Assembly: GCA_964586485.1 (NCBI GenBank)
Contig: CAZPII010000001.1
Location: forward strand, 68,334-109,699
Direction of reading: 5' to 3'
DNA from: an uncultured Atribacterota bacterium
GTDB taxonomy: Bacteria > Atribacterota > Phoenicimicrobiia > Phoenicimicrobiales > Stramentimicrobiaceae
Length of the DNA: 41,366 bases
This document shows positions 7,920 to 40,148 of this stretch, in pieces. Made by a program: the position numbers and the translations under genes. The notes beneath the pieces are model-generated. The model was given only the letters and a program-made list of their open reading frames with translations. It had not been told where the DNA came from and did not search any database. Position 1 is the stretch's first letter, and every line of letters starts with the position of its first letter.

Positions 7920-8596
7920 TGGATAATAATCCCGGTAAATGGACACAAGAAGAAGACAACATACTCATTACTAGGTATAATATTGTTAAAAAGTCTCTAA
8001 TAATGAAATTATTACCAAAACGATCTTGGAAATCTATTAAACGCAGGGCTATTTATCTTAGAATAACTGGGCAATCAGTTTCAAATAAATATTATAAAGT
8101 TGATAAAAACACTGTTAAACTTAAGATAAGAACTCGTGGAACCGGAACTCATTCATTTATTTTTGATAAAAGTGATTATAAAAGGGTTAAGAATTTTACT
8201 TGGTATGTTAATACTGCACATGAGGGCAGGCCACACGCTGTTGCTAAATCAGCAGAGACTAATTTTAAAACACTAAGATTAAGTCGTTTTATTATGGAGA
8301 TCCCCGAAGGGTCTGGATCTATAATTAGTTTTAAAGATGGTAATACTCTTAATTGTAAGAAAAATAATTTATTAATAGGTGACAGGTCGCTTGTTAGATA
8401 TGTTAATGAAAAGCCGAATAAAAATAATTCTTTGGGTATTAAGGGTGTTTATTATGATAAAAAGAAAGATAAATATCGGGTAGAATTTAGAATAAATGGT
8501 AAACTAAGATATTTTGGCATTTTTAAAGAACTTAGAGAGGCGAAAAGTGTGGCAAAAAATGTAAGGGCTAAAATTATAAGCGGGGATATTAGATGA
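7916..8596 (+). CDS. Myb/SANT-like + HNH_3-like + AP2 DNA-binding domain protein (homing-endonuclease-like)
   Basis: KWTQEEDNIL...SWKSIKRRAIYL (Myb/SANT pattern). FKDGNTLNCKKNNL (HNH_3-like, but Phe where the His is expected). GIKGVYYDKKKDKYRVEFRINGKLRYFGIFKELREA (AP2 pattern). ATGA overlap with the Rad50-like gene. Confidence 0.55.
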   Translation: MMDNNPGKWTQEEDNILITRYNIVKKSLIMKLLPKRSWKSIKRRAIYLRITGQSVSNKYYKVDKNTVKLKIRTRGTGTHSFIFDKSDYKRVKNFTWYVNTAHEGRPHAVAKSAETNFKTLRLSRFIMEIPEGSGSIISFKDGNTLNCKKNNLLIGDRSLVRYVNEKPNKNNSLGIKGVYYDKKKDKYRVEFRINGKLRYFGIFKELREAKSVAKNVRAKIISGDIR

Positions 8597-9237: not shown

Positions 9238-9688
9238 AAAGCATAAAACATTTTATGTTTTGTATTGCCATAAATGCACAGATAGTATTATATCCAGACT
9301 ATCAGACAATAGTATAAATTATTATTTTATTGAAGATTTTAAAAGTCCTATTAGATCTTATATTTTTATCCCAACTTCTCAAGTTTTTGATTTAAAACAA
9401 ATTAGTAAAATTGATGGTGTTTATTTTTTAACTAGAATAGGAGATGATATTCCGGCTACAATATCGGGTAATGATCTTTTATCTATAGTGAATAAAGACA
9501 AGAGAGCAAAAGATTTTATTGGTAAACTTGTTAAAATAAAAACCGGCAGATTAAAGGGTATGTCAGGAAAATGTACTTATTCTAATAAAAATAAGCTTCA
9601 TGTTTGTATGTATTTGTTTAATGGCAGGATGACTACTGTTAAAAATGTTCCTATTTCAAGTGTGGTAGAATTAAAAGAATGTTATTAG
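9218..9688 (+). CDS. NusG/Spt5-like protein (NGN-like N-terminus + KOW motif), putative
   Basis: GKLVKIKTGRLKGMSGKCTY fits the KOW pattern G-x-V-x-I-x2-G-x2-G-x2-G. N-terminal FYVLYC resembles the NGN first strand. Confidence 0.4.
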   Translation: MFQRAAKKHKTFYVLYCHKCTDSIISRLSDNSINYYFIEDFKSPIRSYIFIPTSQVFDLKQISKIDGVYFLTRIGDDIPATISGNDLLSIVNKDKRAKDFIGKLVKIKTGRLKGMSGKCTYSNKNKLHVCMYLFNGRMTTVKNVPISSVVELKECY

Positions 9689-10446
9689 ATAATTGTGATA
9701 AGGATAAAGTTTTTTATATTATACAAACATTTCTTACTGATAAGGAAAGAAGTCTTATTATTGATTATTATTATGATAATTATACTTCTCTTAGGAAAAT
9801 AGCTTTTATTTATAATATGAACCATACTACGGTAAAATATAATATTGATAAGATAATTAATAGAATTCAAGATTATCTTGATATTTATGACGAGCTAGAG
9901 GATATTTCAAATGATAATTTGTTTTTAATAAATTTAGATTGTTATGATGTTCAGATTTTGTTTTATATGATATTGCTGTATAATAATAAAACTATTAAAA
10001 AATTAATGAGAATAGGCTCTGATCATTTAGCTAAAAGAATTAAAAGAATTAAGAATCTTTTAGAGTTGGATTATCCAGTTATATATAATAAACTATTTTG
10101 TATGAGGAAGAAATTTATTAAGATGGGAGTTGCTTATATGTCTTTAACAGATTATGATTTTCCACTTTATACAATCAGAGATAAGAGCGGTAAGCTTTAT
10201 TCTTTAGAAAAAGAAAAAATATTATTATATAGTGATAAAAGAAAAGTCCTTGAGATCATTAGTGCTTCTAATAAAACATTAAAAAAACAAATTTATGATA
10301 TTTATATGATAGATAGTTTGGCTCATTTTATATCTGTTTTTAATAGGGGTAATGATTCATTTGAAATAGTGAAAGAAAGAGGTGAAAGAATTGTCATTGA
10401 TAATAAAAATATTGGTGAGCTTTCTCGATTTGATACCTCAAGATAA
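9679..10446 (+). CDS. HTH regulator with sigma-70 region-4-like motif(s)
   Basis: LTDKERSLIIDYYYDNYTSLRKIAFIYNMNHTTVKYNIDKIINRIQDYL fits the region 4.2 pattern. A second weaker copy is KTIKKLMRIGSDHLAKRIKRIKNLL. Confidence 0.4.
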   Translation: MLLDNCDKDKVFYIIQTFLTDKERSLIIDYYYDNYTSLRKIAFIYNMNHTTVKYNIDKIINRIQDYLDIYDELEDISNDNLFLINLDCYDVQILFYMILLYNNKTIKKLMRIGSDHLAKRIKRIKNLLELDYPVIYNKLFCMRKKFIKMGVAYMSLTDYDFPLYTIRDKSGKLYSLEKEKILLYSDKRKVLEIISASNKTLKKQIYDIYMIDSLAHFISVFNRGNDSFEIVKERGERIVIDNKNIGELSRFDTSR

Positions 10447-10684
10447 ATTAGAGCATTTTGGATATTATCGATTACAAAAAGATGATATTTTTGTTACTGA
10501 TTCAAAATATTGTTGTCTTTTCAGGAAGAGCGGCAGTAATAATAACATGATTGAAGAAGTAATTATTAGTGACGATTACGGTGGCGTTGTTTCGTTAACT
10601 GTATTCGAAGCACAAAATTTGTTTACTAGATTTTTTAAAGAGATAGAAAGGAAAAGATATAATGTTAGAAAGGTCAATAACTAA
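10382..10684 (+). CDS. hypothetical protein; start codon uncertain
   Basis: Open frame bridging the regulator gene and queD. It overlaps the upstream gene by 65 nt from its GTG start. The first in-frame ATG is only at about 10546. Confidence 0.3.
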   Translation: MKELSLIIKILVSFLDLIPQDKLEHFGYYRLQKDDIFVTDSKYCCLFRKSGSNNNMIEEVIISDDYGGVVSLTVFEAQNLFTRFFKEIERKRYNVRKVNN

Positions 10685-11066
10685 AATATTTAAATTTGAT
10701 TCAGCTCATTATTTGCCTTCCCATGATGGTAAATGCGCTAATTTACACGGCCACACTTATGAACTACATATTACTGTTTGTGGTAAATTATCTGAACATG
10801 GTCCAGAAAAAGGTATGATTATGGATTTTGGGCATTTAAAAAATGTGGTTAATAATGAAATTATTTCAAAACTTGACCATAAAAATTTAAATGAACTTTT
10901 TGAAAATCCAACCGCAGAAGTTATGTGTGATTGGATATATTGTCAGTTAAATTCTTCTTTTGGACTTAATGATTCTTCGCCTTTTGGTCTTAATTTTTAT
11001 TTAAAAAAAATAAGACTTTATGAGACACCTACTTCTTATTGCGAGATTGAGTTTAAACCATGTTAA
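10662..11066 (+). CDS. queD: 6-carboxy-5,6,7,8-tetrahydropterin synthase
   Basis: FKFDSAHYLP...DGKCANLHGHTYEL...LDHKNLNE are QueD/PTPS signature segments. Size is 134 aa. AAGGAA RBS. Confidence 0.85.
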   Translation: MLERSITKIFKFDSAHYLPSHDGKCANLHGHTYELHITVCGKLSEHGPEKGMIMDFGHLKNVVNNEIISKLDHKNLNELFENPTAEVMCDWIYCQLNSSFGLNDSSPFGLNFYLKKIRLYETPTSYCEIEFKPC

Positions 11067-11148
11067 ATCGTTAATTTATATAACATTTTATTTTATAATT
11101 CTAAAATTTGTTATAAAATATATTTGTTAATAAATTGAGGTAATAATT

Positions 11149-11391
11149 ATGTTTAATTTGCAAAGATTAAAAAATGATTTAAATCATTTAGATTTAAAAG
11201 ATACAATTAATTGGTCTAAAAGATTTATTGAAAGACGGGATCTTTATAAATCTTGCGAATTATGTAAAAGAGAAGCGTCTTATATTTTCTCCAGAACATC
11301 GAAAATATCAAATAATACATATGAACATGTTTTTTGTTTTTCCTGTTTAATGTATTATTTTAAAAATGAAGAATTTAAATTAGTTGGGTGA
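11149..11391 (+). CDS. small zinc-ribbon-like protein
   Basis: 80-aa ORF with a GAGG RBS. CELC...CFSC cysteine pairs. Confidence 0.5.
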   Translation: MFNLQRLKNDLNHLDLKDTINWSKRFIERRDLYKSCELCKREASYIFSRTSKISNNTYEHVFCFSCLMYYFKNEEFKLVG

Positions 11392-11393
11392 TT

Positions 11394-12035
11394 ATGAGAA
11401 AAAGTGGTTATATTCAAACTTACACAGGTGATGGAAAAGGTAAGACAACTGCTGCTTTTGGTATGTTATTAAGAGGTGTTTCTGAAAATTGGAAAATATA
11501 TGTAGTTCAATTTATGAAGGGGGATCCATTATTTGATTACGGTGAGATTAGGGCTTGTGAGAAGTTTAAAGATGTAAAAATTTATCAATGCAGGATGGAT
11601 GCAGCTCTTATTATAAAAATGCTTCAAGGTGATGCCGACGCAAAAAAAGAATGTTCTCAAAAAGCTCGTTATGCTTGGTCAAGATGTGTTAATGAAATTT
11701 TAAATAATGAATATGACTTAGTTTTAATGGATGAGATTTTGCCGGTTGTTGATAATAATTTGCTTGAAATTTCTGAATTAATTCATTTTTTAAAAAACAA
11801 ACCGGATTTATTAGAAGTTGTTTTGACTGGAAGAATGAAAAACCCTGAATTAATTAGTAATATCAGGCTTGTTTCGGATTATTGTACAAAAATGGATTGT
11901 TTAGAGCATCCATTTCATAAAAAATGTCCAAATTGTGGTCATATTTTTATAGGCGAAAAGGCAAGTTACATAGGGTGCCCTTATTGTCTTATTGAATTAG
12001 AGCAGGTTTTTGCTAGAAAAGGAATAGAGTTTTGA
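11394..12035 (+). CDS. CobA/CobO/BtuR-family P-loop protein (ATP:cob(I)alamin adenosyltransferase-like) with a zinc-ribbon insertion
   Basis: YTGDGKGKTTAAFG, VVQFMKG, LVLMDEI, EVVLTGR and the terminal ARKGIEF track E. coli BtuR (FTGNGKGKTTAAFG, VVQFIKG, VVLDEL, VIITGR, GIDY) along the whole length. CPNCGHIF...CPYC is inserted before the C-terminal motif. The ORF could also start at GTG 11388. Confidence 0.8.
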   Translation: MRKSGYIQTYTGDGKGKTTAAFGMLLRGVSENWKIYVVQFMKGDPLFDYGEIRACEKFKDVKIYQCRMDAALIIKMLQGDADAKKECSQKARYAWSRCVNEILNNEYDLVLMDEILPVVDNNLLEISELIHFLKNKPDLLEVVLTGRMKNPELISNIRLVSDYCTKMDCLEHPFHKKCPNCGHIFIGEKASYIGCPYCLIELEQVFARKGIEF

Positions 12036-12322
12036 TTTGTATTTTTAAGAAATCAGATAAAACAAATAGAATAGATGTTGATTTTGGTCTTGGTACTGTT
12101 GCTATTAGTTTATTTGATGATGATAAAACTTCTTTGGTACTTCACGTTTGTAAGCGTGTTTCCAAGAACGAAACTGGCAAAACTATAACATCTTTTTATA
12201 AAGATTTTCCAGCTTCACATGAAATTTTTTTAAATTTTATGTCCGTTGAATCAATAGATTATTTAATTAAAATGTTAAATATGTTAAAAGAAAGGAAATT
12301 AAATGATATCCAAAATAAATGA
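12032..12322 (+). CDS. hypothetical protein
   Basis: 96-aa ORF with a TTG start overlapping the upstream stop. No motif recognised. Confidence 0.4.
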   Translation: MICIFKKSDKTNRIDVDFGLGTVAISLFDDDKTSLVLHVCKRVSKNETGKTITSFYKDFPASHEIFLNFMSVESIDYLIKMLNMLKERKLNDIQNK

Positions 12323-12551
12323 ACATACAGATTTTTTACCAAGAGATTTAAGATTATGTATTGGTAAAGAAAAATTAAGATTTAATAATAAAATTATCGA
12401 TACGATAGGACCAGATGTTATTAATAATGAGGTTTTGAAGTTATTAATTTCAGAAATTTATGATGATGGTTTAAATATGGGATTTTATATTAAAGATAAA
12501 TTCAATGAGCTTAAAGGCGAGGGCTTTCAAGAAATGAGAAAAAATGGCTAA
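12303..12551 (+). CDS. hypothetical protein
   Basis: 82-aa ORF with an ATG after AAAGGAAA. Overlaps its neighbours. Confidence 0.45.
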   Translation: MISKINEHTDFLPRDLRLCIGKEKLRFNNKIIDTIGPDVINNEVLKLLISEIYDDGLNMGFYIKDKFNELKGEGFQEMRKNG

Positions 12552-13119
12552 GACAACAAATAATATAGATCTTTATAAGTCTAATCGTGATAATTGGCAA
12601 ACTCCACCATTTATTATTGAATGTTTGTTGAAACATTTTAAAATAAAGCGATTTGATTATGATTTGTGTTGTGATCAATTCAATATCCCTGCAAAACGTT
12701 ACATAACGAAAAACGGAATATATAGGTTAAAATTGAAGCAAAACAGTGTGATTAAGGTTTCTAATAATGATTATTTTAAATCTAATTTCAGTGGTTTGTG
12801 TTATATGAATCCTGTTTTTAAAATTACAGATAAATTTTTAAAAAAGCTGGTAGAAAATAAAAAAGACTGTAATGTTGTAGCTTTATTACCGGTTAGAACC
12901 AACTGTGTTTATTGGCATGATCTTGTTTTTAATAAAGCATCGGCTATATTTTTCTTTAAGAGGAAAATTAATTTTTATATAGATAATCATTCTGTTTGTG
13001 GTGACGGGAATCCTTCGCCTATATGTTTAGCATTTTATAATTTTAAATATGATAAAATAAAAGATATTTATTTTGAGAAACATGAGCTTGACGGAACTAT
13101 GATAAAATTGGAGAATTAA
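12544..13119 (+). CDS. phage Dam-family (N6-adenine DNA methyltransferase-like) protein with an atypical NPVF motif
   Basis: DNWQTPPFII, DYDLCCD, CYMNPVF, ALLPVRTNCVYWH and KINF follow the order of the phage N6A-methyltransferase family (W-x-TP ... D-x-D/A ... NPPY ... LLP-x-RT ... W). The catalytic tetrapeptide reads NPVF. Confidence 0.65.
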   Translation: MAKTTNNIDLYKSNRDNWQTPPFIIECLLKHFKIKRFDYDLCCDQFNIPAKRYITKNGIYRLKLKQNSVIKVSNNDYFKSNFSGLCYMNPVFKITDKFLKKLVENKKDCNVVALLPVRTNCVYWHDLVFNKASAIFFFKRKINFYIDNHSVCGDGNPSPICLAFYNFKYDKIKDIYFEKHELDGTMIKLEN

Positions 13120-13120
13120 T

Positions 13121-13768
13121 GTGTATAAAATTAATGAAATTTTTCAGTCAATACAAGGTGAAGGAAAAAATACCGGGCGTCCTTGTAATTTTATAAGATT
13201 TAGTGGATGTAATCTAAACTGTTCTTTTTGCGACACTGATCATTCTGAAAAATTATTGCTTAGTCCTGAAGCAATAAAAAATCATATTGATTTTTTTAAA
13301 CCAATTGTTTTTACAGGTGGTGAGCCGATTATAGTTGAGAGGCTGGATAAACTTATATCTTATTTAAAAGATTATGGTGGGAAATTATGGCTCGAAACTA
13401 ATGGTGTATTGGAATTTGATTATCAATTATTTAGATATGTCGCTTTGAGCCCTAAGTTTGTTAATGGTGATTTTTTAGTTAGTGAGTCTGCGTTAAAAAA
13501 TTGTGACGAAATTAAAATTGTTATCACTGAAGACTTTTTAACAGATGATAATCTTTTTATAAAAACCAGTATAAAACAAAAAATACTGGATCTTTGTACT
13601 GGGGCTTATAAATCAGGTTATAAAAATAAAGATATATTTTTACAACCTGATTATAGGAATTTAAGTGTTACAATGAACGCTATTAAAAGTCTCATTATGA
13701 CTGAAGGTAATGAATTTTGTTTAATGAGACTTGGAACACAATTGCATAAATATATAGGAGTTAGATAA
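13121..13768 (+). CDS. queE: 7-carboxy-7-deazaguanine synthase (radical SAM)
   Basis: INEIFQSIQGEGKNTGRPCNFIRFSGCNLNCSFCDT is the QueE N-terminal signature with the Cys cluster. GTG start 7 nt after GGAG. Confidence 0.85.
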   Translation: MYKINEIFQSIQGEGKNTGRPCNFIRFSGCNLNCSFCDTDHSEKLLLSPEAIKNHIDFFKPIVFTGGEPIIVERLDKLISYLKDYGGKLWLETNGVLEFDYQLFRYVALSPKFVNGDFLVSESALKNCDEIKIVITEDFLTDDNLFIKTSIKQKILDLCTGAYKSGYKNKDIFLQPDYRNLSVTMNAIKSLIMTEGNEFCLMRLGTQLHKYIGVR

Positions 13769-14343
13769 TGAATATTAATGATATCTCTAAAATAAAAGAC
13801 ATTATTCATAATGATGTATTTAAATGCTTTGGAGAAAAATATTGCTTTAACGAGGAAGAGATAACTAATACTCCTCTAAGGATTGTTAAAATGTTTATTA
13901 ATGAATATTTTAGCGGCCTTAAAGACGACCCGGAAGAAATTTTATCTAAAACATTTAAATCTGATTCAAATGATATAGTGATGCAAAGGGATATACCATT
14001 TTGTTCAGTCTGCGCTCATCATATGGTTCCGTTTCGTGGCTATGCTCATATAGGTTATATTCCTGATAATAATATTGTTGGTCTTTCAAAACTTGGTCGT
14101 CTCGTTGATTGTTTCGCCAGAAGGCCGCAATTGCAGGAAAAGATGACTTATGAAATTGCTGAATCACTTATGCAACATTTAAAACCGTTAGGTTGTATGG
14201 TTATAATTAAAGCAGAGCATCTTTGTGTTACAACTAGAGGCGTAAGGAAGCCCGGCAGTGAAACAGTGACATCTGCTGTTCGTGGCATATTTAAAGATAG
14301 TAGTGGTGTTAGACAAGAATTTTTGGAGTTACTTAAGCTTTGA
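13768..14343 (+). CDS. folE: GTP cyclohydrolase I
   Basis: CSVCAHHMVPFRGYAHIGYIP, VGLSKLGRLVDCFARRPQLQEKMT and EHLCVTTRGVRKPGS are FolE signatures. TAATG coupling to queE. Confidence 0.9.
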   Translation: MNINDISKIKDIIHNDVFKCFGEKYCFNEEEITNTPLRIVKMFINEYFSGLKDDPEEILSKTFKSDSNDIVMQRDIPFCSVCAHHMVPFRGYAHIGYIPDNNIVGLSKLGRLVDCFARRPQLQEKMTYEIAESLMQHLKPLGCMVIIKAEHLCVTTRGVRKPGSETVTSAVRGIFKDSSGVRQEFLELLKL

Positions 14344-14516
14344 TTAAATCGTTAGAAACTTTATTTCATTTTCAATGTCAAAAATGCTCTAAATGGTGGA
14401 GTATTGGTGATTTCCATATTATATATCAATCTAATATTTATTGCCCATTTTGTAAAGAGGGTTTTTATATCAGTTCTGATTATTTAAAGGAGAATAAGAA
14501 TGAATCAAGAGATTAA
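14340..14516 (+). CDS. candidate unannotated small zinc-ribbon ORF (TTG start)
   Basis: Hand translation gives LIKSLETLFHFQCQKCSKWWSIGDFHIIYQSNIYCPFCKEGFYISSDYLKENKNESRD*. GGAG lies about 12 nt upstream of the TTG. It fills the otherwise empty 156-nt gap after folE. No in-frame ATG, so it is absent from the ORF track. Confidence 0.3.
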   Translation: MIKSLETLFHFQCQKCSKWWSIGDFHIIYQSNIYCPFCKEGFYISSDYLKENKNESRD

Positions 14517-14748
14517 TTCGGTTGAGGTTTTTGAAATCGGTGGTGAACCTGAATTTCTTGTGCCTGAACCCGCTAGCGAAACCTCTGTTTCAAAAGAGAA
14601 ACAGTTCGCTAATCAACTAATTGATAGGAAAACTAAGCTGAATTTAAATGATGAGGCGTATTTGACACCAAAACAAAGACGTGTTCTTAAAAAATCTCTT
14701 AAATTGAAAAAATCTAAGAAACTTGGAGATAAGAAAATAAGGATTTAA
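14500..14748 (+). CDS. hypothetical small protein with an acidic N-terminus and a lysine-rich C-terminus
   Basis: 82-aa ORF with an AAGGAG RBS. C-terminal KQRRVLKKSLKLKKSKKLGDKKIRI. Confidence 0.5.
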   Translation: MNQEINSVEVFEIGGEPEFLVPEPASETSVSKEKQFANQLIDRKTKLNLNDEAYLTPKQRRVLKKSLKLKKSKKLGDKKIRI

Positions 14749-14751
14749 TAT

Positions 14752-16173
14752 ATGTGTAATATTTGTGGAGCTTTTAATTTTTCATCTAAAATAACAAAAT
14801 TTAAATTTGATTTAGTTAGAAATATTTTAAATCAAATAGCTTTAGATGGAAATATTAGGGGTTCTGATTCATTTGGCATTTTTGCCGATATTGATAATGA
14901 AAATAAAAATAGTGTTTATAAGGGCGTAGGTCTTTATGATAATGAAATATATAATGAACAGTTTAACAGTGTTGATTTTAGATGTATATTAATTCATAAC
15001 AGGGCTATACCCACAACTGAAATGGTTTTAGGTCAATATTTTAAAACCCAGCCATTTTTTAGCAATGATAAACAGTGTGTTTGTATTCATAATGGTATTG
15101 TTTCTAATGATAAGGATTTGATACAATCATATAATTTAAACCCAGAATGCTCTATAGATTCTGCTGTTATACCAGAGTTTTATTCAAAGTTTTCTAATTT
15201 ATTTTTTAGTTCTAGTTTGGATGGTAGTTTTGCGCTAGCTATTTATGATTATAAGAAATTAGTTTTATTGAGAAATTATAAACCATTAAGGCTATTACGA
15301 AGTGATAAACTTGGTGTTTATATTTTTTCAAGTTATTTTTCTCAATTAACACTTGAAGATCTTATTGATAATTTTGATTTTAAAGAAATAGAATTTCCAC
15401 CATATACGGGTTATATTATTTCAAAAAATGATAAATATTTAGTCCAAAAAAATATTGAACCTATTAAATCTAATCAAGCTGTTGTTTTGTGTTCTGGCGG
15501 TCTTGATTCGGCTGTAACAACTCATATTGCTTGTGAAAAACATGGCGCGCATAATGTTACACTTTTATATTTTGTTTATGATTGTAACTCACAGATACCA
15601 GAGATTAGTGCAGTAAAAAATTTGGCAAACTTTTATGGATGTAAATATAAAAAAATCGATATCAATTTAAAACAATATGATTCTTCATCAAATTTATTTG
15701 TTAAAAATTCAGTTGAACAAGGTCTGTCCGGCGCCGAGACGCCTCATGAATGGGTAGTTGCTAGAAATACTGTTTTTATCAGTAATGCGGCTGCTTATTG
15801 TGATGCAAACAATATAAGTTCTATATATTTAGGATTGAATTTAGAAGAGGCTGGTGTTTATAAAGATAACACCGTAGAGTTTGTAGAACTTTTTAATAAA
15901 TTATTAAAATTTGGCAGTCAAAGGATGCCGGAAATCTATTGCCCGCTTCAATATTCAGTTAAACATGAAATTGTTTCAGTTGGAATAAAATTAGATGTGC
16001 CTTTGCATTTATCTTTTAGTTGTTATGATCCTATTATAACTGAAATGTCTAATACAATATTATGTGAGCCATGCAATAAATGTGGCTCTTGTTATTTAAG
16101 AGAAAAAGCATTTGAAATGAATAATATAACCGATCCTTATATTGTTAAAAGCGCTATTGTAGAAAGGAAATAG
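14752..16173 (+). CDS. queC: class-II (Ntn, Cys2) glutamine amidotransferase fused to 7-cyano-7-deazaguanine synthase (Gat-QueC)
   Basis: N-terminus MCNICGAF plus IHNGIVSND (Ntn amidotransferase). C-terminal half has the PP-loop VVLCSGGLDSAV (nt ~15494-15511) and the QueC zinc cluster SFSCYDP...CEPCNKCGSCYLREKAF. Confidence 0.85.
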   Translation: MCNICGAFNFSSKITKFKFDLVRNILNQIALDGNIRGSDSFGIFADIDNENKNSVYKGVGLYDNEIYNEQFNSVDFRCILIHNRAIPTTEMVLGQYFKTQPFFSNDKQCVCIHNGIVSNDKDLIQSYNLNPECSIDSAVIPEFYSKFSNLFFSSSLDGSFALAIYDYKKLVLLRNYKPLRLLRSDKLGVYIFSSYFSQLTLEDLIDNFDFKEIEFPPYTGYIISKNDKYLVQKNIEPIKSNQAVVLCSGGLDSAVTTHIACEKHGAHNVTLLYFVYDCNSQIPEISAVKNLANFYGCKYKKIDINLKQYDSSSNLFVKNSVEQGLSGAETPHEWVVARNTVFISNAAAYCDANNISSIYLGLNLEEAGVYKDNTVEFVELFNKLLKFGSQRMPEIYCPLQYSVKHEIVSVGIKLDVPLHLSFSCYDPIITEMSNTILCEPCNKCGSCYLREKAFEMNNITDPYIVKSAIVERK

Positions 16174-16178
16174 GTATT

Positions 16179-17219
16179 ATGAAAAGAAAAGAAAAATTAT
16201 ATATAGTAGGTAATTTTTATCATCATAATGATACTATTTTAAAACCTATTTTAAATCAGGCTATTGATAGCGATTATTTTAAAGAAATAGAATGGGTTGA
16301 TCCAAAAAACTATGGATATATTGACGATGATAGGTCTTACTCTTATTGGTCTGATCCTATATTGACATATAATTTTTGGAACGCTCAAATAAAAGGATTG
16401 CTTGGCGTTAATGGAGAGAAACTTGTTGATAATTCTTCTATTTTATTATTAGAGTTTTGGAATCCTTTAATTGAAATAGTCAGATATTTTATTGACGCTA
16501 AAGGTTTGAAGGATATTATATTCTCTGCAATTATGCATAGTAGTTGTAATATACCACTTGATCATGGTCAATACCTCCAAAATTGGGGTTATTTTAGTGA
16601 AGCTAGTTGGCAAAAATGTTTAGATAAAATATTTGTTACCGATTCGCAATCTTATAAATATTGTGAGTTCAATAATGCTATTGTTTCTTATTTACCATAT
16701 GATAGCGACTGGACCCCTTGTGATAAAAAAAATCAGGTTGTTGCTTGTATTTCTAATGACAAGAGAAGTAGTTATATGTTTTTTAGATTTAAAGAATTTG
16801 TTGAAAGAACAGATCCTGATTTAAAATTTATTATTGCTTCTCCAAAAACTCATAATAATTATTTCATTGAATTGCCAGATGGTGTTGAGAGATTATATTT
16901 AGACAGGAAAGAATATAATAAATTATTAGCTGAATCTAAATATTATTTTTGCTGGACTCATTTTGATAATTTTTGTCATGCAACGCTTGAGGCGTTTTTT
17001 AATAGGTGCTCTATGATTTTAAATCCTTATCCTTATCATAATGAAATATATCCTTATAGATATATTTATTCTAATATAGAAGAGGATTGGTGTAATGCTA
17101 TTGGCTCATCTGGTCCGCTTCCTGAAGAAATTGAATCTGTCAAACGTTTATTAGGAAAACCAGAAAAACTTATAGTTGATAATTTATATTACTCAGATTT
17201 AATCAGGAATTATTCGTAA
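16179..17219 (+). CDS. GT-B-fold glycosyltransferase-like protein, paralog 1
   Basis: 346 aa, the same length as the next gene. It shares FWNPLIE, H-S-S, YLPYD and LEAFF motifs with that gene. DNFCHATLEAFFNRCSMIL resembles a degenerate E-x7-E GT4 motif. Confidence 0.5.
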   Translation: MKRKEKLYIVGNFYHHNDTILKPILNQAIDSDYFKEIEWVDPKNYGYIDDDRSYSYWSDPILTYNFWNAQIKGLLGVNGEKLVDNSSILLLEFWNPLIEIVRYFIDAKGLKDIIFSAIMHSSCNIPLDHGQYLQNWGYFSEASWQKCLDKIFVTDSQSYKYCEFNNAIVSYLPYDSDWTPCDKKNQVVACISNDKRSSYMFFRFKEFVERTDPDLKFIIASPKTHNNYFIELPDGVERLYLDRKEYNKLLAESKYYFCWTHFDNFCHATLEAFFNRCSMILNPYPYHNEIYPYRYIYSNIEEDWCNAIGSSGPLPEEIESVKRLLGKPEKLIVDNLYYSDLIRNYS

Positions 17220-17247
17220 TTAAGTACTTAGATTAAAAGGAGGCTTT

Positions 17248-18288
17248 ATGAGGAAAGTGTATGTTTTGGGTAATCTTGGACTACATGGATCAACAATAGT
17301 TGATAAAATTACTTCTTATTTATCAACTGCCGTTCAGACTGAGGTGAGGTATAGTTGTGAATTTACTGGTGATACTAAACCTTGGAAGCTTCAATCTTTA
17401 GATCCAAATATTATTCTAAATTTTCAACATGTTTTAGAGCTTGATTTTTTTAATTCGCCAAGCACTATATTTTTTCCTGAGTTTTGGAATCCTTTAATTG
17501 AAACAGCAAGGATTTATGTTAATAATTACAAAAAAGATGTAAAATTAGTTGCTTTACACCATGGCTCAAGTCATGTTAATGGTGATCTTATGGCGACTAG
17601 TGTTGGAGAAGATTTATCAAGACATATGGAGTATTCTTGGTTAGCTTGTTTAGATTATTTATTAGTTGGCTCTCGATATGCAAAAGATTGTATTGTTAAA
17701 ATTCATCCTGAGTTTGAAAGTAAAATTATAGTTACTTATTTACCCTTTGATCCGCCAAAATTTATTGAGCGCAAAGAATATGCAGAAATAATTAAACCCA
17801 GTGGAAAAATATTGTTTCCTCACAGATTGTCGCAAGATAAGAATTGGGAAAGTGTTTATAATTTTATAAAATATGTTTTGAAACGTAAGGATCTTTATTT
17901 TACCACTGATGATTTTATTGTTTGTACTCCGATTGAGCCGCGCTATGCAATAAGGGAGATGTTTTCAAAACTTGGTGTTAGTATTAAGGCTTATAGCAGG
18001 AAACAATTTCATAATCAAATGTATTCTTGTCGTTATGTTTATAGTGATGCGTTGCAAGAAACATTTGGTTATTCTGTTTTAGAAGCATTTTTTAGCGGAT
18101 GTATACCGGTTTTAAGTCAACACCCGTTGTATCAAGAATTTTTCGGTTATGATATGTTATTTGAACCTGATAATCATTGTGATATTATTGAAAAAATGAA
18201 AAATTTAACTTATCCTTATATTATTAGAGATAGGTTGTTTAAACTTTTTGATTCAGCAGAGGAAAACATTGCTAAAATTTTGGTGTGA
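17248..18288 (+). CDS. GT-B-fold (GT4-like) glycosyltransferase, paralog 2
   Basis: ETFGYSVLEAFFSGCIPVLSQHPLYQEFF matches the C-terminal E-x7-E nucleotide-sugar-binding motif of GT1/GT4 enzymes. AAGGAGG RBS. Confidence 0.6.
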   Translation: MRKVYVLGNLGLHGSTIVDKITSYLSTAVQTEVRYSCEFTGDTKPWKLQSLDPNIILNFQHVLELDFFNSPSTIFFPEFWNPLIETARIYVNNYKKDVKLVALHHGSSHVNGDLMATSVGEDLSRHMEYSWLACLDYLLVGSRYAKDCIVKIHPEFESKIIVTYLPFDPPKFIERKEYAEIIKPSGKILFPHRLSQDKNWESVYNFIKYVLKRKDLYFTTDDFIVCTPIEPRYAIREMFSKLGVSIKAYSRKQFHNQMYSCRYVYSDALQETFGYSVLEAFFSGCIPVLSQHPLYQEFFGYDMLFEPDNHCDIIEKMKNLTYPYIIRDRLFKLFDSAEENIAKILV

Positions 18289-18291
18289 TTT

Positions 18292-19155
18292 ATGAGAATT
18301 TATTTTAGTAGCGGGGTTATAGAGCGCCACACTTATGCTTTAAAAAAATGCAAAGTTAAAAATGGTCTTTTTAGTTATTTATTTATATTAAAAAGACCAG
18401 AATGCTTTAGTGAAACTGATTTTAAAAGCGTTATGGTTGATTCGGGCGCATATACATTTCTTGCTAATCCTAAAGAGATGGAGAAAAAATTTAAAACTAG
18501 GAATTCAAAAAGAGCATTATATAAATTTGTTGAAGAATATGTTCAATGGCTCTATGATAATACAGATAAATATGAATATGCTGTTGAGGTTGATTTATAT
18601 GATGCTTTTGGTGAAGATTTTATTTTTAGACTACATGAGGAATTTTTTAAACCATTTCAGAGGGATACAGGTAAAGAAGTTATTTTCGTTATGCAGGAAA
18701 GGGGTTTATCAGATTGGAATAAGCTCATTAAAGACCCTGAGATCAAATTTCTTGGTATTGGTAGTACCAATTCTTTATCGGTAAAAAATTATGTTTATTG
18801 GGTTTCAAAATGTATAAAATATAATAAAAAAGTTCATGGGTTTGCTATTACTAATTTAAAATATTTGTTAAGAATTCCTTTTTATAGTGTTGATTCTACA
18901 ACTTGGATGTCAAGTGATAAATATGGTGAACATTTCTTTTTTGATAAAAAAAACATGAAAATAAGAAGAATTTATTCTAGGAAGCCTGAATTACTTATTA
19001 AATATTACCCTCAAATGGCTGAAGATTATTCATTGCAGGAGTTAAAAGTAAAATATAAAAATGATGCCAGACTTTGTTTTGCTATTAAACAATTTCAAGA
19101 GGTTGAAGACTTTTGTACTGATATGTGGAAAAGAAAAGGTATTGATTATGACTGA
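18292..19155 (+). CDS. dpdA: DpdA-family (TGT-like) DNA 7-deazaguanine transglycosylase
   Basis: VMVDSGAYTF (TGT/DpdA DSG motif), KVHGFAIT and FYSVDSTTWMSSDKYG (DS-x-x-W motif). Located in the queD/E/C-folE cluster. Confidence 0.75.
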   Translation: MRIYFSSGVIERHTYALKKCKVKNGLFSYLFILKRPECFSETDFKSVMVDSGAYTFLANPKEMEKKFKTRNSKRALYKFVEEYVQWLYDNTDKYEYAVEVDLYDAFGEDFIFRLHEEFFKPFQRDTGKEVIFVMQERGLSDWNKLIKDPEIKFLGIGSTNSLSVKNYVYWVSKCIKYNKKVHGFAITNLKYLLRIPFYSVDSTTWMSSDKYGEHFFFDKKNMKIRRIYSRKPELLIKYYPQMAEDYSLQELKVKYKNDARLCFAIKQFQEVEDFCTDMWKRKGIDYD

Positions 19156-19432
19156 TGCTATTTTAAACATTATAAAAGAAAAGGTGACAGTTAAAATATA
19201 TGAATTTATTAAATTTAAAAAATTAGATAAGAAACAACATAAATTTTATGAAGCAACTAGTGAATTTATTAGTTCATTATCTGATCTTAATAACGAGTAT
19301 AAATATAATATTTATTTAGATTTGACATTTCAAAAAGTTGAAAAATTAAAAAATGGCATCCTTTTAGTTCATATTGATACCGATGATCCATATTTAATAA
19401 AATATTTAGAAGGCTTTGAGATAAATATTTAG
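19148..19432 (+). CDS. hypothetical protein
   Basis: ATG at 19148 (MTDAILNIIKEK...) overlaps the dpdA stop by 8 nt. The longer 19061 start would lie deep inside dpdA. Confidence 0.5.
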   Translation: MTDAILNIIKEKVTVKIYEFIKFKKLDKKQHKFYEATSEFISSLSDLNNEYKYNIYLDLTFQKVEKLKNGILLVHIDTDDPYLIKYLEGFEINI

Positions 19433-19434
19433 TA

Positions 19435-19464
19435 TTGACTATTATATTATTAATAAGTTAAAAT
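19435..19464 (+). promoter_or_regulatory. sigma-70-like promoter TTGACT-N18-TAAAAT
   Basis: TTGACT at 19435-19440 and TAAAAT at 19459-19464, followed by GGAGG at 19472-19476 and the TTG start at 19486. Confidence 0.5.
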
Positions 19465-19485
19465 CTTTTTTGGAGGTAATTTTTT

Positions 19486-20232
19486 TTGGAAAAACCTATT
19501 AAGCTTTCGGATCGATTATTTATGGGCGTTATTGCGGTTAGTAATATACGGCCAAATAATTGGAATATAAATGTTCAAACCGAAAATACTTTTAATAAAT
19601 TAAAGCTTAGTGTTGATAAGCATGAAATGAATCAGACTTTAACCTTATTAAAAGATTATGATGAGGAAACTGATACTGAATATATTATCTTAAATGGTGA
19701 ACACAGATGGAAGGCAGCTAAGGATTTAGGTCTTGAACGTGTTCCTGCTGTTTTTTATGTCGACATGACGCCTGAAGAGGCTATTCAAATAACTTTAAAA
19801 TCTAATGAACTTAATGGTGATCCTGATATATATAAGTTACCTGAACGTTTGGAGCAAACAGGTTTAACTACGCAACAAATATTAGAAGAGTTTGAATGGA
19901 CTAAATCAGAGTTAGAAAATATATTTAGTATTTCTGATACTATAAATGATGAAGAATTTGTTATGCCTGAAACTGAAATGTCAGATGAGGAAGAAGAGCT
20001 TTTAGATGCTGAAAACAGATCAAAAGTAAGATTATCTTTTATGCTTGATCAGAAACAGTTTAATGAATTTTATGATTTAAAAAGAAAACTTGAATGCCTG
20101 ACTGATGATGATGCTTTTATTAGAATTTGTATGATATGCAAGCAAACTTTGAATAAAAATAAGAACAAAGTTAAAATAAAAGATGATATCGAATCCAATA
20201 ATGAATCTCGCAGGAGAAAAATAATTGAATAA
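19486..20232 (+). CDS. ParB/Srx-fold (ParB N-terminal nuclease-like domain) protein 1
   Basis: IILNGEHRWKAAKDLGLERVPAVF is the ParB GxxR box. Acidic linker (ETEMSDEEEELLD). TTG start after GGAGG. Confidence 0.7.
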   Translation: MEKPIKLSDRLFMGVIAVSNIRPNNWNINVQTENTFNKLKLSVDKHEMNQTLTLLKDYDEETDTEYIILNGEHRWKAAKDLGLERVPAVFYVDMTPEEAIQITLKSNELNGDPDIYKLPERLEQTGLTTQQILEEFEWTKSELENIFSISDTINDEEFVMPETEMSDEEEELLDAENRSKVRLSFMLDQKQFNEFYDLKRKLECLTDDDAFIRICMICKQTLNKNKNKVKIKDDIESNNESRRRKIIE

Positions 20233-20881
20233 AAAAATAGAATCTATTTCTATAAAGAATATTAAACCTAATAATTGGAATCCTAATGGTTTTAGTGAAT
20301 CTAGATTTAAAAAATTAATTAAAAGTATTGAAAAAGATGGCTTAATTAATCCGATTGTTGTTTATGATAATGATAAACAATTTGTTATTGTTGACGGAGA
20401 ACATCGTTTTAAAGCTTTTAAAGCTTTAAATAAGAAAAAGATTGATTGTTATGCCTTGGGCAAATTAGAGACACATGAAGCCCAAAGGCTTAATTATGTT
20501 TTGAATAAATTAAAAGGTGATACAGAAAATGAAGAAAAAGATTTTGAAATTATAACTAATCTTTTAGATAATTATGAATTAGAAGAGTTACTTAAAACCC
20601 TTCCTTATTCTGAGATTGAATTACAACAATATTTAGATGAGAAATTTGAAGATTTTGATGAAGAATCTGTTGCTAATGAATTAGATTCTGAGCCAGATGA
20701 ACCAAATATAAATATGGATAAAGTTGAAGATAAAAAGAATATTGTTAAGTTTTCAATTTCAGATGATGATTATACTGACTTTTGGCTTCAAATAGTTACA
20801 TTGTTTGATTCTGATGTTTCTAAAGATTCTATTTTTGTTGAAATATGTCGATCATATTTAGAGGTTATTGACGAAGGTTAA
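20225..20881 (+). CDS. ParB/Srx-fold protein 2 (paralog)
   Basis: IKNIKPNNWNPN and IVDGEHRFKAFKALNKKKIDCY parallel protein 1 (IRPNNWNIN, LNGEHRWKAAKDLG). Acidic linker. TTG start overlaps the upstream stop. Confidence 0.65.
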   Translation: MNKKIESISIKNIKPNNWNPNGFSESRFKKLIKSIEKDGLINPIVVYDNDKQFVIVDGEHRFKAFKALNKKKIDCYALGKLETHEAQRLNYVLNKLKGDTENEEKDFEIITNLLDNYELEELLKTLPYSEIELQQYLDEKFEDFDEESVANELDSEPDEPNINMDKVEDKKNIVKFSISDDDYTDFWLQIVTLFDSDVSKDSIFVEICRSYLEVIDEG

Positions 20882-20911
20882 TAAGCTTCCTTGAATATCT
20901 TTTACTCTGCA

Positions 20912-20944
20912 ATACACTTGAAAAATATCAAGTGTATTTTTTTT
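20912..20944 (+). terminator. Rho-independent terminator
   Basis: 10-bp perfect stem ATACACTTGA (20912-20921) / TCAAGTGTAT (20928-20937), 6-nt loop, then a run of 8 T. Confidence 0.8.
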
Positions 20945-21001
20945 AATAATACTGAGATTTATAATATAATTAATATATGTATTACGAAATAGGAGTGATT
21001 T

Positions 21002-23028: not shown

Positions 23029-23814
23029 ATGACTTCAGGTAAAAGAAAACTTCATGAAACTGAGAAGATTAAAAATCTAGTATTTAGAGAATATGCGACT
23101 ACAAGTAAAACTATAACTCAGATAGCTAGAGAATTTAAGGTTCCCAAGCATTTATTGTATTCTTGGAAAAGAAAGAATCAACCTGATGACTGGGAAGCCT
23201 CTAGGCTCGCGAAAAAGGGCAAATTACCTTCCCTTGATGATGTTCAGCTTTCTGATAGCGAAATGCTTCGTGTACGCAATGTCGATAGGCTTTTGAGACT
23301 TAGTGATAGAAATTATTCTAATTTTGTTCTTATTTTTAATCATTTAAATGAAAAATTAACTAATTATTATAAAAATGACAAGTTTAAAAATTTTACAATT
23401 AAAGATTATGATAACTTTTTTAAACTTGTTAATCTCATTAATAATATATTAGATAAACTTTATGCTGTTTCAATGCCAGATCCAAAAGGCTATATGCTTG
23501 TTAACGATGTAGAGTTTATGATTGGTATGTTTTTTAAGCATGTTTTAAATCTTATAACTAATCATCCAGAATTACCTCCTGATATTAAAGTTGATTTGGT
23601 CAAATCTATTACTAATTATGCTGATTCTCAGAAAGATAATCTTAATAGAAGAAAAGATCTTAATATACTGACAATTGAGCAGGGGCGAGAGTTGATTCTA
23701 AAACAAGCTCAGGAACATAAGATGAAAAAAGATCAGGAAAGAAAATTAATTGAAGATAAAATAAAGAAGCATTTTGAAGAAAAAGAAACCGGCCGGAGAC
23801 ATAAAGTTGACTAA
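23029..23814 (+). CDS. terminase small subunit, putative (N-terminal HTH)
   Basis: ITQIAREFKVPKHLLYSWKRK HTH, followed by a helical region. It sits immediately upstream of, and overlaps, the large terminase. Confidence 0.45.
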   Translation: MTSGKRKLHETEKIKNLVFREYATTSKTITQIAREFKVPKHLLYSWKRKNQPDDWEASRLAKKGKLPSLDDVQLSDSEMLRVRNVDRLLRLSDRNYSNFVLIFNHLNEKLTNYYKNDKFKNFTIKDYDNFFKLVNLINNILDKLYAVSMPDPKGYMLVNDVEFMIGMFFKHVLNLITNHPELPPDIKVDLVKSITNYADSQKDNLNRRKDLNILTIEQGRELILKQAQEHKMKKDQERKLIEDKIKKHFEEKETGRRHKVD

Positions 23815-39571: not shown

Positions 39572-40090
39572 ATGAGTTTGACAGGGTTAAGCAAGAATAA
39601 TATTGAAATTGTGGAAGATTTTAAAAAAGCAAGTTACAAATGGAACCATATTATTAAAATAGATCATGGTTATACTTGTTATAAAATAATAGTTCCAAAG
39701 AAATACATATGTATTTATAATAAAGATTATTTAAGGTCGACTGGTACAATTTCAGAATCCTTAATTATAATTATTGACATTGAAAGAAAAATAATTCATC
39801 TAATAGATACAAAATCAAAAGTATTAATATTAGAAATACTCGCCGCATGCCAGCGGGTATTTGAATATTTAAAATTACCTGTAAAAATCATTCCGCCTTT
39901 AACAGAGGTTACTAGAAAAAATTGTGATTATATTTCTTTCTTTTTGCAATATAAAGGTGTTAATTTTAAATGGTGCGCTGGAACTTCAATTTTATTAGAT
40001 AACAACTGGAAACTGTTAATTACTTTAGACAAATTTAGTTTAAGTAATTCTTCTGTGTTAGAGTATATAGATTATAAAATAATAAAATAG
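39572..40090 (+). CDS. hypothetical protein upstream of the JAB gene
   Basis: 172 aa with an AAGGA RBS. No motif recognised. Confidence 0.5.
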   Translation: MSLTGLSKNNIEIVEDFKKASYKWNHIIKIDHGYTCYKIIVPKKYICIYNKDYLRSTGTISESLIIIIDIERKIIHLIDTKSKVLILEILAACQRVFEYLKLPVKIIPPLTEVTRKNCDYISFFLQYKGVNFKWCAGTSILLDNNWKLLITLDKFSLSNSSVLEYIDYKIIK

Positions 40091-40111
40091 CTTGGATAAT
40101 TTTGTTGTGAT

Positions 40112-40141: not shown

Positions 40142-40148
40142 CAAACAA

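Follow-up and report, generated by a model that had tools for sequence, protein, structure and literature searches.

The stretch of DNA analysed here (the window; 41,366 nucleotides at about 27% G+C, part of a 109,699-bp contig from an uncultured Atribacterota bacterium) carries a phage system for modifying DNA with 7-deazaguanine, and we found that a glycosyltransferase (GT) encoded within it belongs to a GT4-like family that accompanies 7-deazaguanine gene clusters in many other phages. Replacing guanine with 7-deazaguanines is a main way for phages to conceal their purines from restriction enzymes; of the eight derivatives described so far none, to our knowledge, carries a sugar. Phage 7-deazaguanine DNA modification is itself a known kind of system; our literature search found no paper linking a glycosyltransferase to deazaguanine clusters or reporting a glycosylated deazaguanine in DNA, and from its distribution among sequenced loci this dedicated GT4-like family looks to be an accessory that is both new and widely conserved. 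Synthesis and insertion of a 7-deazaguanine by the block of genes at 10662-20881 is very probable, and functional coupling of the GT to the deazaguanine pathway is probable. For the full statement, in which guanine is replaced by a 7-deazaguanine derivative that is then decorated with a sugar, we see roughly even chances, counting in the glycosylation step, which we infer from the GT fold, the conserved catalytic residues and the very strong gene linkage. More tentatively, at something short of even, we propose that the family, which numbers about 636 representative clusters when grouped at 50% identity, is a dedicated component of 7-deazaguanine clusters and transfers a sugar onto deazaguanine residues of the DNA, that some lineages tailor this sugar further with PIG-L deacetylases, oxidoreductases or a second GT, and that in the window the acceptor would be a G+- or preQ0-type base served by a catalytic paralog, GT_B, and a degenerate one, GT_A.

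Gene linkage was assessed in three samples: 80 IMG/VR loci anchored on a DpdA motif, 89 loci anchored on a GT motif, and cultured phages. The GT-anchored sample was drawn solely with a hand-made degenerate DNA motif for QETFGYxxxE and is independent of DpdA. A family member was encoded in 68 of its 89 loci, and 64 of these 68 held at least one deazaguanine gene (E≤1e-5), the other four being fragments of 1.3-6.5 kb; DpdL was present in 45 and QueC in only 2. Across all samples pooled, the GT gene directly adjoined a window-type dpdA in 44 of the 68 loci having both. The DpdA-anchored sample contained GT and DpdL without QueC in 19 of 80 loci, GT only in 3, GT with QueC in 1, QueC without GT in 29, and none of the three in 28, many of which are short; DpdL was found with GT in 19 loci and without GT in 0. 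GT-type clusters (L003-L007 and L014-L182) differ from the window in content: they almost never encode QueC and have instead a protein of about 115 amino acids (aa) with the motif LxxxHRHxF, which is DpdL, a QueD paralog and proposed CDG decarboxylase. Our strict DpdL hidden Markov model (HMM), validated on phiST CGPG_00067 (2e-33) and ACP17 gp125 (3e-31), gave no match in a sister lineage of the window (loci L191 and L192), and a broader precursor profile of the family of about 115 aa matched in the window only QueD itself, weakly (E 0.044). On this gene content the window is classed as an atypical member of the GT-cluster class, with Gat-QueC present and DpdL absent.

Cultured carriers of the GT family are ACP17, BUDD, X1, BCSR5, PA5oct-like phages and PhiXhv-15, together with Sinorhizobium phage Phosso and Synechococcus phage BUCT-ZZ01. 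The GT gene adjoins dpdA-type genes together with QueE or FolE in Burkholderia phage BCSR5, Xanthomonas phage BUDD and Acidovorax phage ACP17; the GT of Xanthomonas phage X1 is 90% identical to that of BUDD, and in PA5oct-like phages the GT stands beside QueE and further deazaguanine genes. One PA5oct-like locus, from Pseudomonas phage PAC2 (L012, 5148-10476), encodes a 540-aa DpdA-like protein, the GT, a DpdL-like protein, an epimerase-domain protein, a phosphoribosyltransferase-domain protein and QueE. The ACP17 GT is gp124 (E 1e-73), located between DpdA-like gp123 and DpdL gp125. ACP17 gp122 (L187, 5332-5730) was also considered as DpdL and rejected, as the HMM places DpdL at gp125 (8027-8407); a tblastn search with gp122 returned PA5oct-like phages only and is uninformative on DpdL in cultured phages. 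DpdA types other than that of the window are likewise accompanied by a GT in the jumbo phages BUDD, BCSR5, ACP17 and PA5oct-like phages, and the small GT-carrying phage genomes are contigs of about 20-60 kb with capsid, portal and terminase genes. When bacterial and archaeal genomes were searched with the GT motif, two family members were present among the 120 matches listed, both next to dpdA.

Genes suited to sugar chemistry adjoin the GT in several of these clusters. PIG-L/LmbE-like deacetylases stand beside it in BCSR5, BUDD, PhiXhv-15, L019 and L059, and a second GT4 is present in 10 loci. The cultured Xanthomonas jumbo phage PhiXhv-15 (L013, 4627-8713) encodes, consecutively, Gat-QueC, a PIG-L/LmbE-like deacetylase, the GT and a GFO/IDH/MocA NAD-dependent oxidoreductase; we found no dpdA in the flanks that were covered. 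Judged by its domains, this four-gene run is a putative sugar-tailoring cassette in a deazaguanine cluster, and the adjacency of PIG-L, sugar oxidoreductase and second GT4 genes to the GT in sister clusters suggests that a sugar is transferred and then tailored. Further enzymes recur in related GT-type clusters: radical S-adenosylmethionine (radical-SAM)/SPASM enzymes in 17 loci, a different radical-SAM family in 6, and, beside these, SAM methyltransferases and a P-loop protein of 190 aa. Because such unrelated tailoring genes recur, GT-type islands appear to be diversification hot spots, though the window's own extra genes are not shared with them.

The two window paralogs, GT_A (16179-17219, + strand) and GT_B (17248-18288, + strand), are each 346 aa long and share 25% identity (E 1e-16). 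An AlphaFold2 (AF2) model of GT_B built on a 73-sequence alignment (predicted local distance difference test, pLDDT, 88; predicted template-modelling score, pTM, 0.88) has a GT-B fold with two Rossmann domains; it replaced a prediction from a 2-sequence alignment that was useless at pLDDT 39. Foldseek matched this model with probability 1.00 to SenB, MshA, glycogen synthase, PglA, BshA and TarM in the PDB, and its best viral matches were a 370-aa phage protein and an ACP17 protein annotated 'glycosyl transferase family 1'. The family was defined by a profile of the two paralogs, and most of its clusters are 310-400 aa long; Glycos_transf_1 is matched by 60 of 73 members (E≤0.01, best 7e-14) and Glyco_transf_4 by some. 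Both window GTs have diverged strongly and share 20-30% identity with the family: a word-indexed search with GT_B returned the query alone and the family was recovered by an exhaustive HMMER search, while the GT profile found nothing among PDB sequences.

Conserved residues distinguish the two paralogs. The family has near-invariant residues in the N-terminal, acceptor-side domain (H105, D113, E128 and D136), and the donor-site residues R193, K198, E271 and E279, which form the Arg/Lys clamp and the GT4 EX7E motif, are conserved in 61-69 of 70 members. GT_B, a GT4-like GT-B glycosyltransferase of the deazaguanine-cluster family by AF2 model, Foldseek and family profile, holds every near-invariant residue in both the N-domain and the donor site. 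GT_A, a divergent GT-B paralog, keeps the four acceptor-side residues but has a degenerate donor site (R193C, S266C, E271D, G274C and Y295H), and these substitutions probably abolish conventional transferase activity or alter the choice of donor. A resemblance to the tRNA queuosine glycosyltransferases of QTMAN/GTDC1 type was rejected as evidence of membership, since no GTDC1-type domain (DUF3524) was found in the window GTs or the 73 family members and the C-terminal motif in question is generic to GT4.

The genes for making the base form a recognisable set, all on the + strand. QueD, a 6-carboxytetrahydropterin synthase (10662-11066), matches Pfam PTPS (3e-34) and TIGR03367 (105 bits against a cutoff of 89) and carries the QueD-type C..HGH motif (CANLHGH) rather than the DpdL-type LxxxHRHxF. 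QueE, a radical-SAM 7-carboxy-7-deazaguanine synthase (13121-13768), matches Radical_SAM (3e-8) and has QueE models as its best NCBIfam matches (2e-23), with scores under the equivalog cutoffs; its homologs are located in equivalent clusters elsewhere. FolE, or GTP cyclohydrolase I (13768-14343), matches PF01227 at 1e-62. Gat-QueC (14752-16173) is a fusion of a class-II (Ntn) glutamine amidotransferase with QueC, beginning MCNICG (Ntn Cys2), with GATase_7 at residues 99-199 (8e-12) and QueC at residues 242-457 (9e-44). It is about 30% identical, end to end, to the Gat-QueC proteins of 9g-like, Seuratvirus-like and NP1-like phages that are annotated archaeosine synthase, and can also be aligned with that of PhiXhv-15 (29% identity). 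FolE, QueD, QueE and QueC constitute the established route from GTP to preQ0, and DpdA is the signature transglycosylase of phage deazaguanine systems (PMC6884629, PMC10516641). In phage 9g, Gat-QueC with DpdA yields dG+ in Escherichia coli DNA (PMC6884629), and the source proposed for dADG is a QueC variant (QueC*) or, in bacteria, DpdC. An earlier reading of the window, made from the sequence alone, had named the complete preQ0 route, with which the Pfam and NCBIfam profiles agree, and had linked Gat-QueC to dADG, a link that gives way to dG+ in the literature on phage Gat-QueC. Because 9g-type Gat-QueC is experimentally tied to dG+, the default product for the window would be a G+/preQ0-type base.

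The predicted DNA guanine transglycosylase (18292-19155, + strand) is a divergent DpdA-type protein. It matches PHROG 887, 'queuine tRNA-ribosyltransferase' (1e-20, residues 1-248), and beyond the sister lineage its relatives share 23-33% identity with it. Its tblastn matches are genes that carry the annotation DpdA or queuine tRNA-ribosyltransferase in BCD7, BRock, Streptomyces and Mycobacterium phages; the nearest cultured relatives come from Streptomyces and Mycobacterium phages, from BCD7 and from a Bacteroides phage. A first back-translated DpdA scan of IMG/VR found nothing; a profile-derived motif then succeeded, with more than 543 DpdA relatives adjoining preQ0 genes, and most of the 80 loci in the DpdA-anchored sample have FolE, QueD, QueE or QueC beside the DpdA homolog. 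Across the window protein and 28 homologs the motifs DSG, VHG(F), with F nearly invariant, and P(F)(Y)SVDS are invariant, as are the acidic and His positions D50 (of D50-S-G), D101, H182 and D201 among these 29. In L191 (18159-19547; also protein P0002) an intein (PF14890, 1e-13) interrupts DpdA exactly at the invariant SVDSTTW, at about window residues 200-205. Inteins tend toward catalytic sites, and this placement suggests that the motif is functionally central. Assignment to DpdA3 was rejected, and the enzyme is taken as DpdA1-like, because its HMM misses phiST DpdA3 and the jumbo-phage DpdAs and because its nearest relatives lie in the BCD7, Bacteroides, Streptomyces and Mycobacterium phages. 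Some DpdA homologs are 500-757 aa long (in Bacillus phage BCD7, L008, 7899-10172, and in L034, L066, L073 and L019), and their C-terminal extensions gave no match to the GT HMM, the DpdL HMM or a ParB search.

Two ParB-like genes follow dpdA on the + strand, at 19486-20232 (ParB_N 2e-7; NGEHRWKAA, which fits GxxRxxA) and 20225-20881 (ParB_N 6e-11; motif DGEHRFKA). The paralogs are 34% identical over their N-terminal domain, both keep the GxxRxxA/DGxxR nucleotide-binding motif, and a heterodimer is possible. ParB-like open reading frames (ORFs) occur in 41 of the 80 DpdA-anchored loci, and in 34 of the 80 they lie within 150 nucleotides (nt) of dpdA on the same strand. A single 507-aa ORF in L137 (1518-3041) joins a DpdA domain (residues 1-228) to a ParB-like domain (residues 281-406), which supports a functional DpdA-ParB pair in phages. 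In bacteria DpdB is a ParB-fold ATPase required for DpdA activity (PMC10164549), and a ParB-like partner of DpdA has previously been suggested for a mycobacteriophage (PMC6392294). By analogy the window genes, as DpdB-like candidates, fit this known ATPase partner and would be an accessory already explained, although at 218-248 aa they are about half the size implied for DpdB by a dimer mass of 80-95 kDa (PMC10164549) and TIGR03187 (the DGQHR/DndB type, to which bacterial DpdB with its SspE-like C-terminal domain belongs) matches them only at E 0.0045, far under its cutoff.

In the pathway that we propose, FolE, QueD and QueE would make 7-carboxy-7-deazaguanine from GTP, and Gat-QueC would convert this, by way of preQ0, into the amidine G+, following the example of phage 9g. 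A transglycosylase of DpdA type would then swap guanine in duplex DNA for the deazaguanine base after replication, with the two ParB-like proteins as its nucleoside triphosphatase (NTPase) partner, as DpdB is for bacterial DpdA. These steps of synthesis, transglycosylation and ParB partnership rest on homology to characterised enzymes. GT_B would glycosylate the deazaguanine from a nucleotide sugar, most likely once the base is in DNA, while GT_A, having lost several donor-site residues, would be a non-catalytic partner of GT_B or an enzyme using another donor. The resulting sugar-bearing deazapurine would protect against restriction enzymes as well as against those nucleases or glycosylases for which plain deazaguanines are the target. 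We rate a little below even the prospect that virion DNA finally carries the sugar on this base. The sequence-only reading had envisaged a further decorated, perhaps glycosylated, base or a new insertion machinery; the glycosylated base stands as a fair inference. The extra genes do not form a single machine.

Several observations weigh against this scheme or against one of its parts. GT_B scores 17 bits against Pfam Glycos_transf_1, under the cutoff of 26.4, and GT_A has no match to it. Searches found neither a GT-DpdA nor a GT-DpdL fusion, and of these the missing GT-DpdA fusion counts against the scheme. In HMMER searches the window DpdA matched neither Pfam TGT (the tRNA-guanine transglycosylase family) nor any PDB sequence, with its profile failing likewise against the latter; Pfam TGT also misses the accepted phage DpdAs of phiST (DpdA3), BUDD and ACP17. 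The ParB-like genes lie directly 5' of packaging genes, a common site for phage ParB-like genes. The GT accompanies clusters with DpdL (C7-H), QueC (nitrile) and Gat-QueC (amidine), so a single acceptor chemistry is not obvious, and the differing C7 groups would therefore call for a shared acceptor atom or for diverged GT specificities. Neither preQ0 nor G+, ADG or DG has a hydroxyl group, and a sugar would therefore have to be held by an N-linkage (amidine, amide or N2), a C-linkage (C7 or C8 of the electron-rich pyrrole ring) or an ester. Finally, a profile search found no member of the GT family in phage phiST, whose DNA is nevertheless fully substituted with dDG (PMC10516641), which shows that insertion does not generally require the GT.

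The leading alternative, which we consider unlikely, is that the GT acts before insertion: it would glycosylate or activate the free base or a precursor, or enable DpdA, and the sugar would not be kept in virion DNA, leaving a known final base (dG+, dPreQ0 or dDG). This would agree with the perfect co-occurrence of DpdL and GT in the DpdA-anchored sample, with the variety of C7 chemistries, which would suit an enzyme acting on the shared ring or delivering the base, and with the phosphoribosyltransferase-like gene of PA5oct-like clusters. When ACP17 dpdL and dpdA were expressed in E. coli without the adjacent GT gene, dDG did not appear, which led the authors to suspect that an enzyme was missing (PMC10516641); PA5oct DNA has a modified guanine in GA and/or GG contexts whose structure is unknown (PMC12191111). 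Both observations fit a missing component and count for the proposed scheme; of the two, the ACP17 result would suit action before insertion as well. Yet phiST reaches 100% dDG with DpdL and DpdA3 and no GT (PMC10516641), no known DpdA or tRNA-guanine transglycosylase requires a glycosylated base, and the PIG-L deacetylase and sugar oxidoreductase next to the GT imply a sugar that is retained and tailored.

Quite unlikely, in our estimate, is a system that makes only a known modification (dG+ or dPreQ0), with the remaining genes, GTs included, present as passengers or acting on another base, on envelope glycans or on a small molecule, and placed here through clustering of phage early genes with those of nucleotide metabolism. 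The divergence of the window GTs from the rest of the family and the degenerate donor site of GT_A would suit such a role, as would the absence of counterparts of the Dam-like gene, GT_A and the miniproteins from every related locus and the existence of stand-alone CobA-like genes in other phages (both described below). However, chance co-location of the GT is hard to sustain because the family lies in deazaguanine clusters in 64 of 68 independent loci, with at least three DpdA types and in small as well as jumbo phages; GT_B, moreover, retains all its near-invariant catalytic residues, and we saw in the window no hydroxymethylase or other base-modifying enzyme that would supply an alternative acceptor.

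Other genes interleaved in the block have a far narrower distribution. A CobA/BtuR-type P-loop protein with a C-terminal zinc ribbon (CxxC...CxxC; 11388-12035, + strand) matches PF02572 at 6e-44 (150.6 bits against a cutoff of 25.7) and has an intact P-loop, GDGKGKTT; it misses the NCBIfam equivalog cutoffs (108 against 167.75), so adenosyltransferase activity is not assured. Searching with this protein uncovered the sister lineage L191/L192, which shares 26-65% aa identity with the window and keeps synteny from Pol III to ParB. The L191/L192 island encodes QueD, CobA with its zinc ribbon, QueE, FolE, Gat-QueC, several small ORFs, an unrelated SAM methyltransferase, a 245-aa protein of unknown function, one GT, the intein-split DpdA and two ParB proteins. 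Common to both lineages are therefore QueD, CobA, QueE, FolE, Gat-QueC, GT, DpdA and the two ParB genes, whereas the Dam-like gene, GT_A and the miniproteins are specific to the window. The L191/L192 CobA homologs are 54-56% identical to that of the window and share its zinc ribbon and its position between queD and queE, a position that may reflect shared ancestry; no CobA-like gene was present in about 180 other related loci, and stand-alone cobO genes occur in cyanophage PSS2 and faecal phages. No cobalamin-dependent enzyme was detected in the window. The CobA-like protein is more likely an accessory cofactor gene, supplying adenosylcobalamin, than a pathway step, and a relationship between it and the P-loop protein of L005/L007-type clusters was rejected (hhalign probability 4.8%).

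The Dam-like methyltransferase homolog (12544-13119, + strand), of the phage N6-adenine DNA methyltransferase family PF05869 (HP1/T1 Dam type), matches Pfam Dam at 2e-12 (47.4 bits against a cutoff of 28.1) and PHROG 111 at 8e-23, with 18 bits against a cutoff of 97 for TIGR01712. Its catalytic motif IV, canonically (D/N)PP(Y/F), reads NPVF, against NPPY in four aligned phage members including HP2 Dam, and it has a 17-residue insertion. Its homologs are orphan methylases scattered widely in phages that are not known as deazaguanine carriers (their neighbourhoods were not covered), and the gene is missing from the sister lineage and from all other related loci. The small ORFs, likewise on the + strand, have no family match: an 80-aa lineage-specific zinc-ribbon miniprotein (CxxC...CxxC; 11149-11391), two translationally coupled ORFs of 96 and 82 aa (12032-12551), a 58-aa zinc-ribbon ORF (14340-14516), an 82-aa ORF with a basic tail (14500-14748), and an ORF at 19148-19432, which probably starts from an internal ATG (19148), the full 123-aa frame (19061-19432) overlapping dpdA; the first of these has no homolog in related loci and the others are not conserved. 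On this distribution the Dam-like gene and the miniproteins are taken to be lineage-specific passengers. Very unlikely is the remaining alternative, that the CobA-like and perhaps the Dam-like protein are true pathway steps, by adenosylcobalamin supply, adenosyl or nucleotidyl transfer, or alkylation of an exocyclic amine or amidine by the NPVF homolog, to give a product beyond a glycoside: the retention of the zinc-ribbon CobA between queD and queE in two lineages (about 54% identity), the recurrent tailoring suggested by unrelated SAM methyltransferases, P-loop proteins and additional radical-SAM enzymes that occupy equivalent places in related GT-type clusters, and an NPVF motif that could reflect a changed acceptor are outweighed by the missing cobalamin-dependent enzyme, the confinement of CobA to one sister lineage, its dissimilarity to the L005-type P-loop protein, and Dam-like relatives that are ordinary orphan methylases and include none in the sister lineage.

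The sequence-only reading had counted at least six extra enzymes or partners beyond the described pathway and had suggested testing whether they co-occur with dpdA, with a lack of conserved linkage to dpdA or queC counting as refutation. When linkage was examined in about 180 loci, the GT and ParB-like genes proved to be strongly dpdA-linked, so that refutation on this ground fails for both, and the CobA-like gene, Dam-like gene and miniproteins had no homolog there. Among those extras the GT looks new and is probably pathway-linked; the ParB-like genes correspond to an already described partner, DpdB (PMC10164549), the CobA-like gene extends to one sister lineage, and the Dam-like gene, second GT and miniproteins have no counterpart. 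As for the genes themselves, every assignment in that reading holds against ORF calls and Pfam, NCBIfam and PHROG profiles, at its coordinates and on the + strand: the DpdA-like gene at 18292 (PHROG 887, tblastn relatives and preQ0-gene context), the two GT-B paralogs (the AF2 model and Foldseek matches of GT_B, and paralogy at 25% identity), the two ParB-like paralogs (ParB_N), the BtuR/CobA-like protein (PF02572 and its P-loop), the Dam-like gene with its altered catalytic motif (NPVF against NPPY in our alignment), and the zinc-ribbon and basic miniproteins, which we could read from the translations at 11149-11391, 14340-14516 and 14500-14748. What it observed is confirmed, and what it made of the observation is supported in part; the atypical gene content of the window within its class had escaped it.

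The block at 10662-20881 is tightly packed and co-directional on the + strand, with several overlapping ORFs, in the order QueD, CobA-like, Dam-like, QueE, FolE, Gat-QueC, the two GT-B paralogs, DpdA-type and the two ParB-like genes, so that the single co-directional block with interleaved extras described earlier agrees with our ORF map. It is closed by an intrinsic-terminator-like hairpin at 20911-20938 (+ strand; 11-bp stem, 6-nt loop, then a T run), the strong terminator formerly placed at 20912, and a promoter-like site at 20943-20970 lies between this hairpin and the packaging genes. On the 5' side lie genes of replication and recombination (for a fragment of Pol III alpha, a RecA-like protein and Mre11/Rad50-like SbcCD), and on the 3' side packaging genes comprising a DUF1804 small-terminase-like gene (23029), the large terminase TerL (23774-25633) and the portal (25623), with an NAD-dependent ligase. 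Nearly all genes in the window read on the + strand, and it contains no tRNA genes. With megablast the island matched none of 50,697 phage records and so has no close relative among them.

Two putative DNA-binding proteins lie just 5' of the island (7916-8596 and 9679-10446), one with weak AP2/Myb-like matches and the other with weak helix-turn-helix (HTH)/sigma-70-region-4-like matches; both are kept in the sister lineage, and they may be regulators of the block. The NAD-dependent DNA ligase (27535-29439) is full length, with adenylation, OB, HhH and BRCT domains, and stands just 3' of the portal amid structural and packaging genes. Further downstream, a DUF2786 and DUF7168 protein (34875-35609) lies amid many small ORFs of unknown function (30-40 kb), and a JAB/MPN-domain protein (Prok-JAB 4e-8) is encoded at 40092-40640. 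GC skew goes negative over the last kilobase (about 40000-41366), which suggests a change of coding strand at the window end.

If the proposed sugar step is correct, it would give the first glycosylated purine analogue in natural DNA, as far as is known, and sugar-bearing deazapurines with their transferases could be useful for DNA labelling and for restriction- or CRISPR-resistant DNA. It could also account for the modified guanine of PA5oct-like phages and for the 'missing enzyme' of ACP17-type DpdL clusters. Host enzymes that recognise plain deazaguanines have been described, namely END nucleases (PMC12191111) and Dag glycosylases (bioRxiv 10.1101/2025.10.29.685425), and a GT family bound to deazaguanine clusters would be the next move in this arms race, as glucosylation of 5-hydroxymethylcytosine was for T4. 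The cultured carriers listed above make the GT link directly testable.

Among the closest known systems is the dG+ system of phage 9g (Hutinet et al., 2019, PMC6884629), with which the window shares FolE, QueD, QueE, the Gat-QueC fusion, a DpdA function (DpdA1 in 9g, DpdA1-like by prediction in the window) and, as the expected mechanism, base exchange after replication. Unlike the window, 9g-type clusters have no GT-B glycosyltransferase, CobA-like or Dam-like gene, and the window differs from them further in the divergence of its DpdA and in the two ParB-like genes attached to it. The DpdA/DpdB/DpdC system of Salmonella Montevideo (PMC10164549) likewise pairs a transglycosylase with a ParB-fold NTPase; in the window, however, the candidate partner is a pair of short ParB-like paralogs of generic ParB_N rather than DGQHR/DndB type, and neither DpdC nor the restriction genes DpdD-K are present. 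Most clusters of the GT family are of the DpdL-type dDG kind represented by phiST and ACP17 (FolE, QueD, QueE, DpdL and DpdA, no QueC; Cui et al., 2023, PMC10516641), from which the window differs by having Gat-QueC and no DpdL. The published description of those clusters does not mention a glycosyltransferase (PMC10516641), and the sole DpdL phage that has been chemically analysed, Cellulophaga phage phiST, lacks the GT, unlike ACP17.

For the sugar step itself the closest models come from outside deazaguanine biology. The retaining GT4 enzymes MshA and BshA of mycothiol and bacillithiol synthesis, which were among the top Foldseek matches of GT_B, share its GT-B fold, EX7E motif and Arg/Lys phosphate clamp at 11-15% identity; their acceptors are inositol phosphate and malate, against a proposed nucleobase or DNA for GT_B. 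The logic of MshA/MshB and BshA/BshB, in which GlcNAc transfer is followed by de-N-acetylation, is mirrored by the GT4 and PIG-L genes of several sister clusters, whereas the window has no PIG-L gene. The alpha- and beta-glucosyltransferases of T4 offer a functional analogy, in that a GT-B enzyme adds sugar to a modified base after replication as a layer of counter-defence. They differ from GT_B in having no sequence match and no place among its top 50 structural matches, and in using as acceptor a pyrimidine hydroxyl, that of 5-hydroxymethylcytosine, where GT_B would act on a deazapurine.

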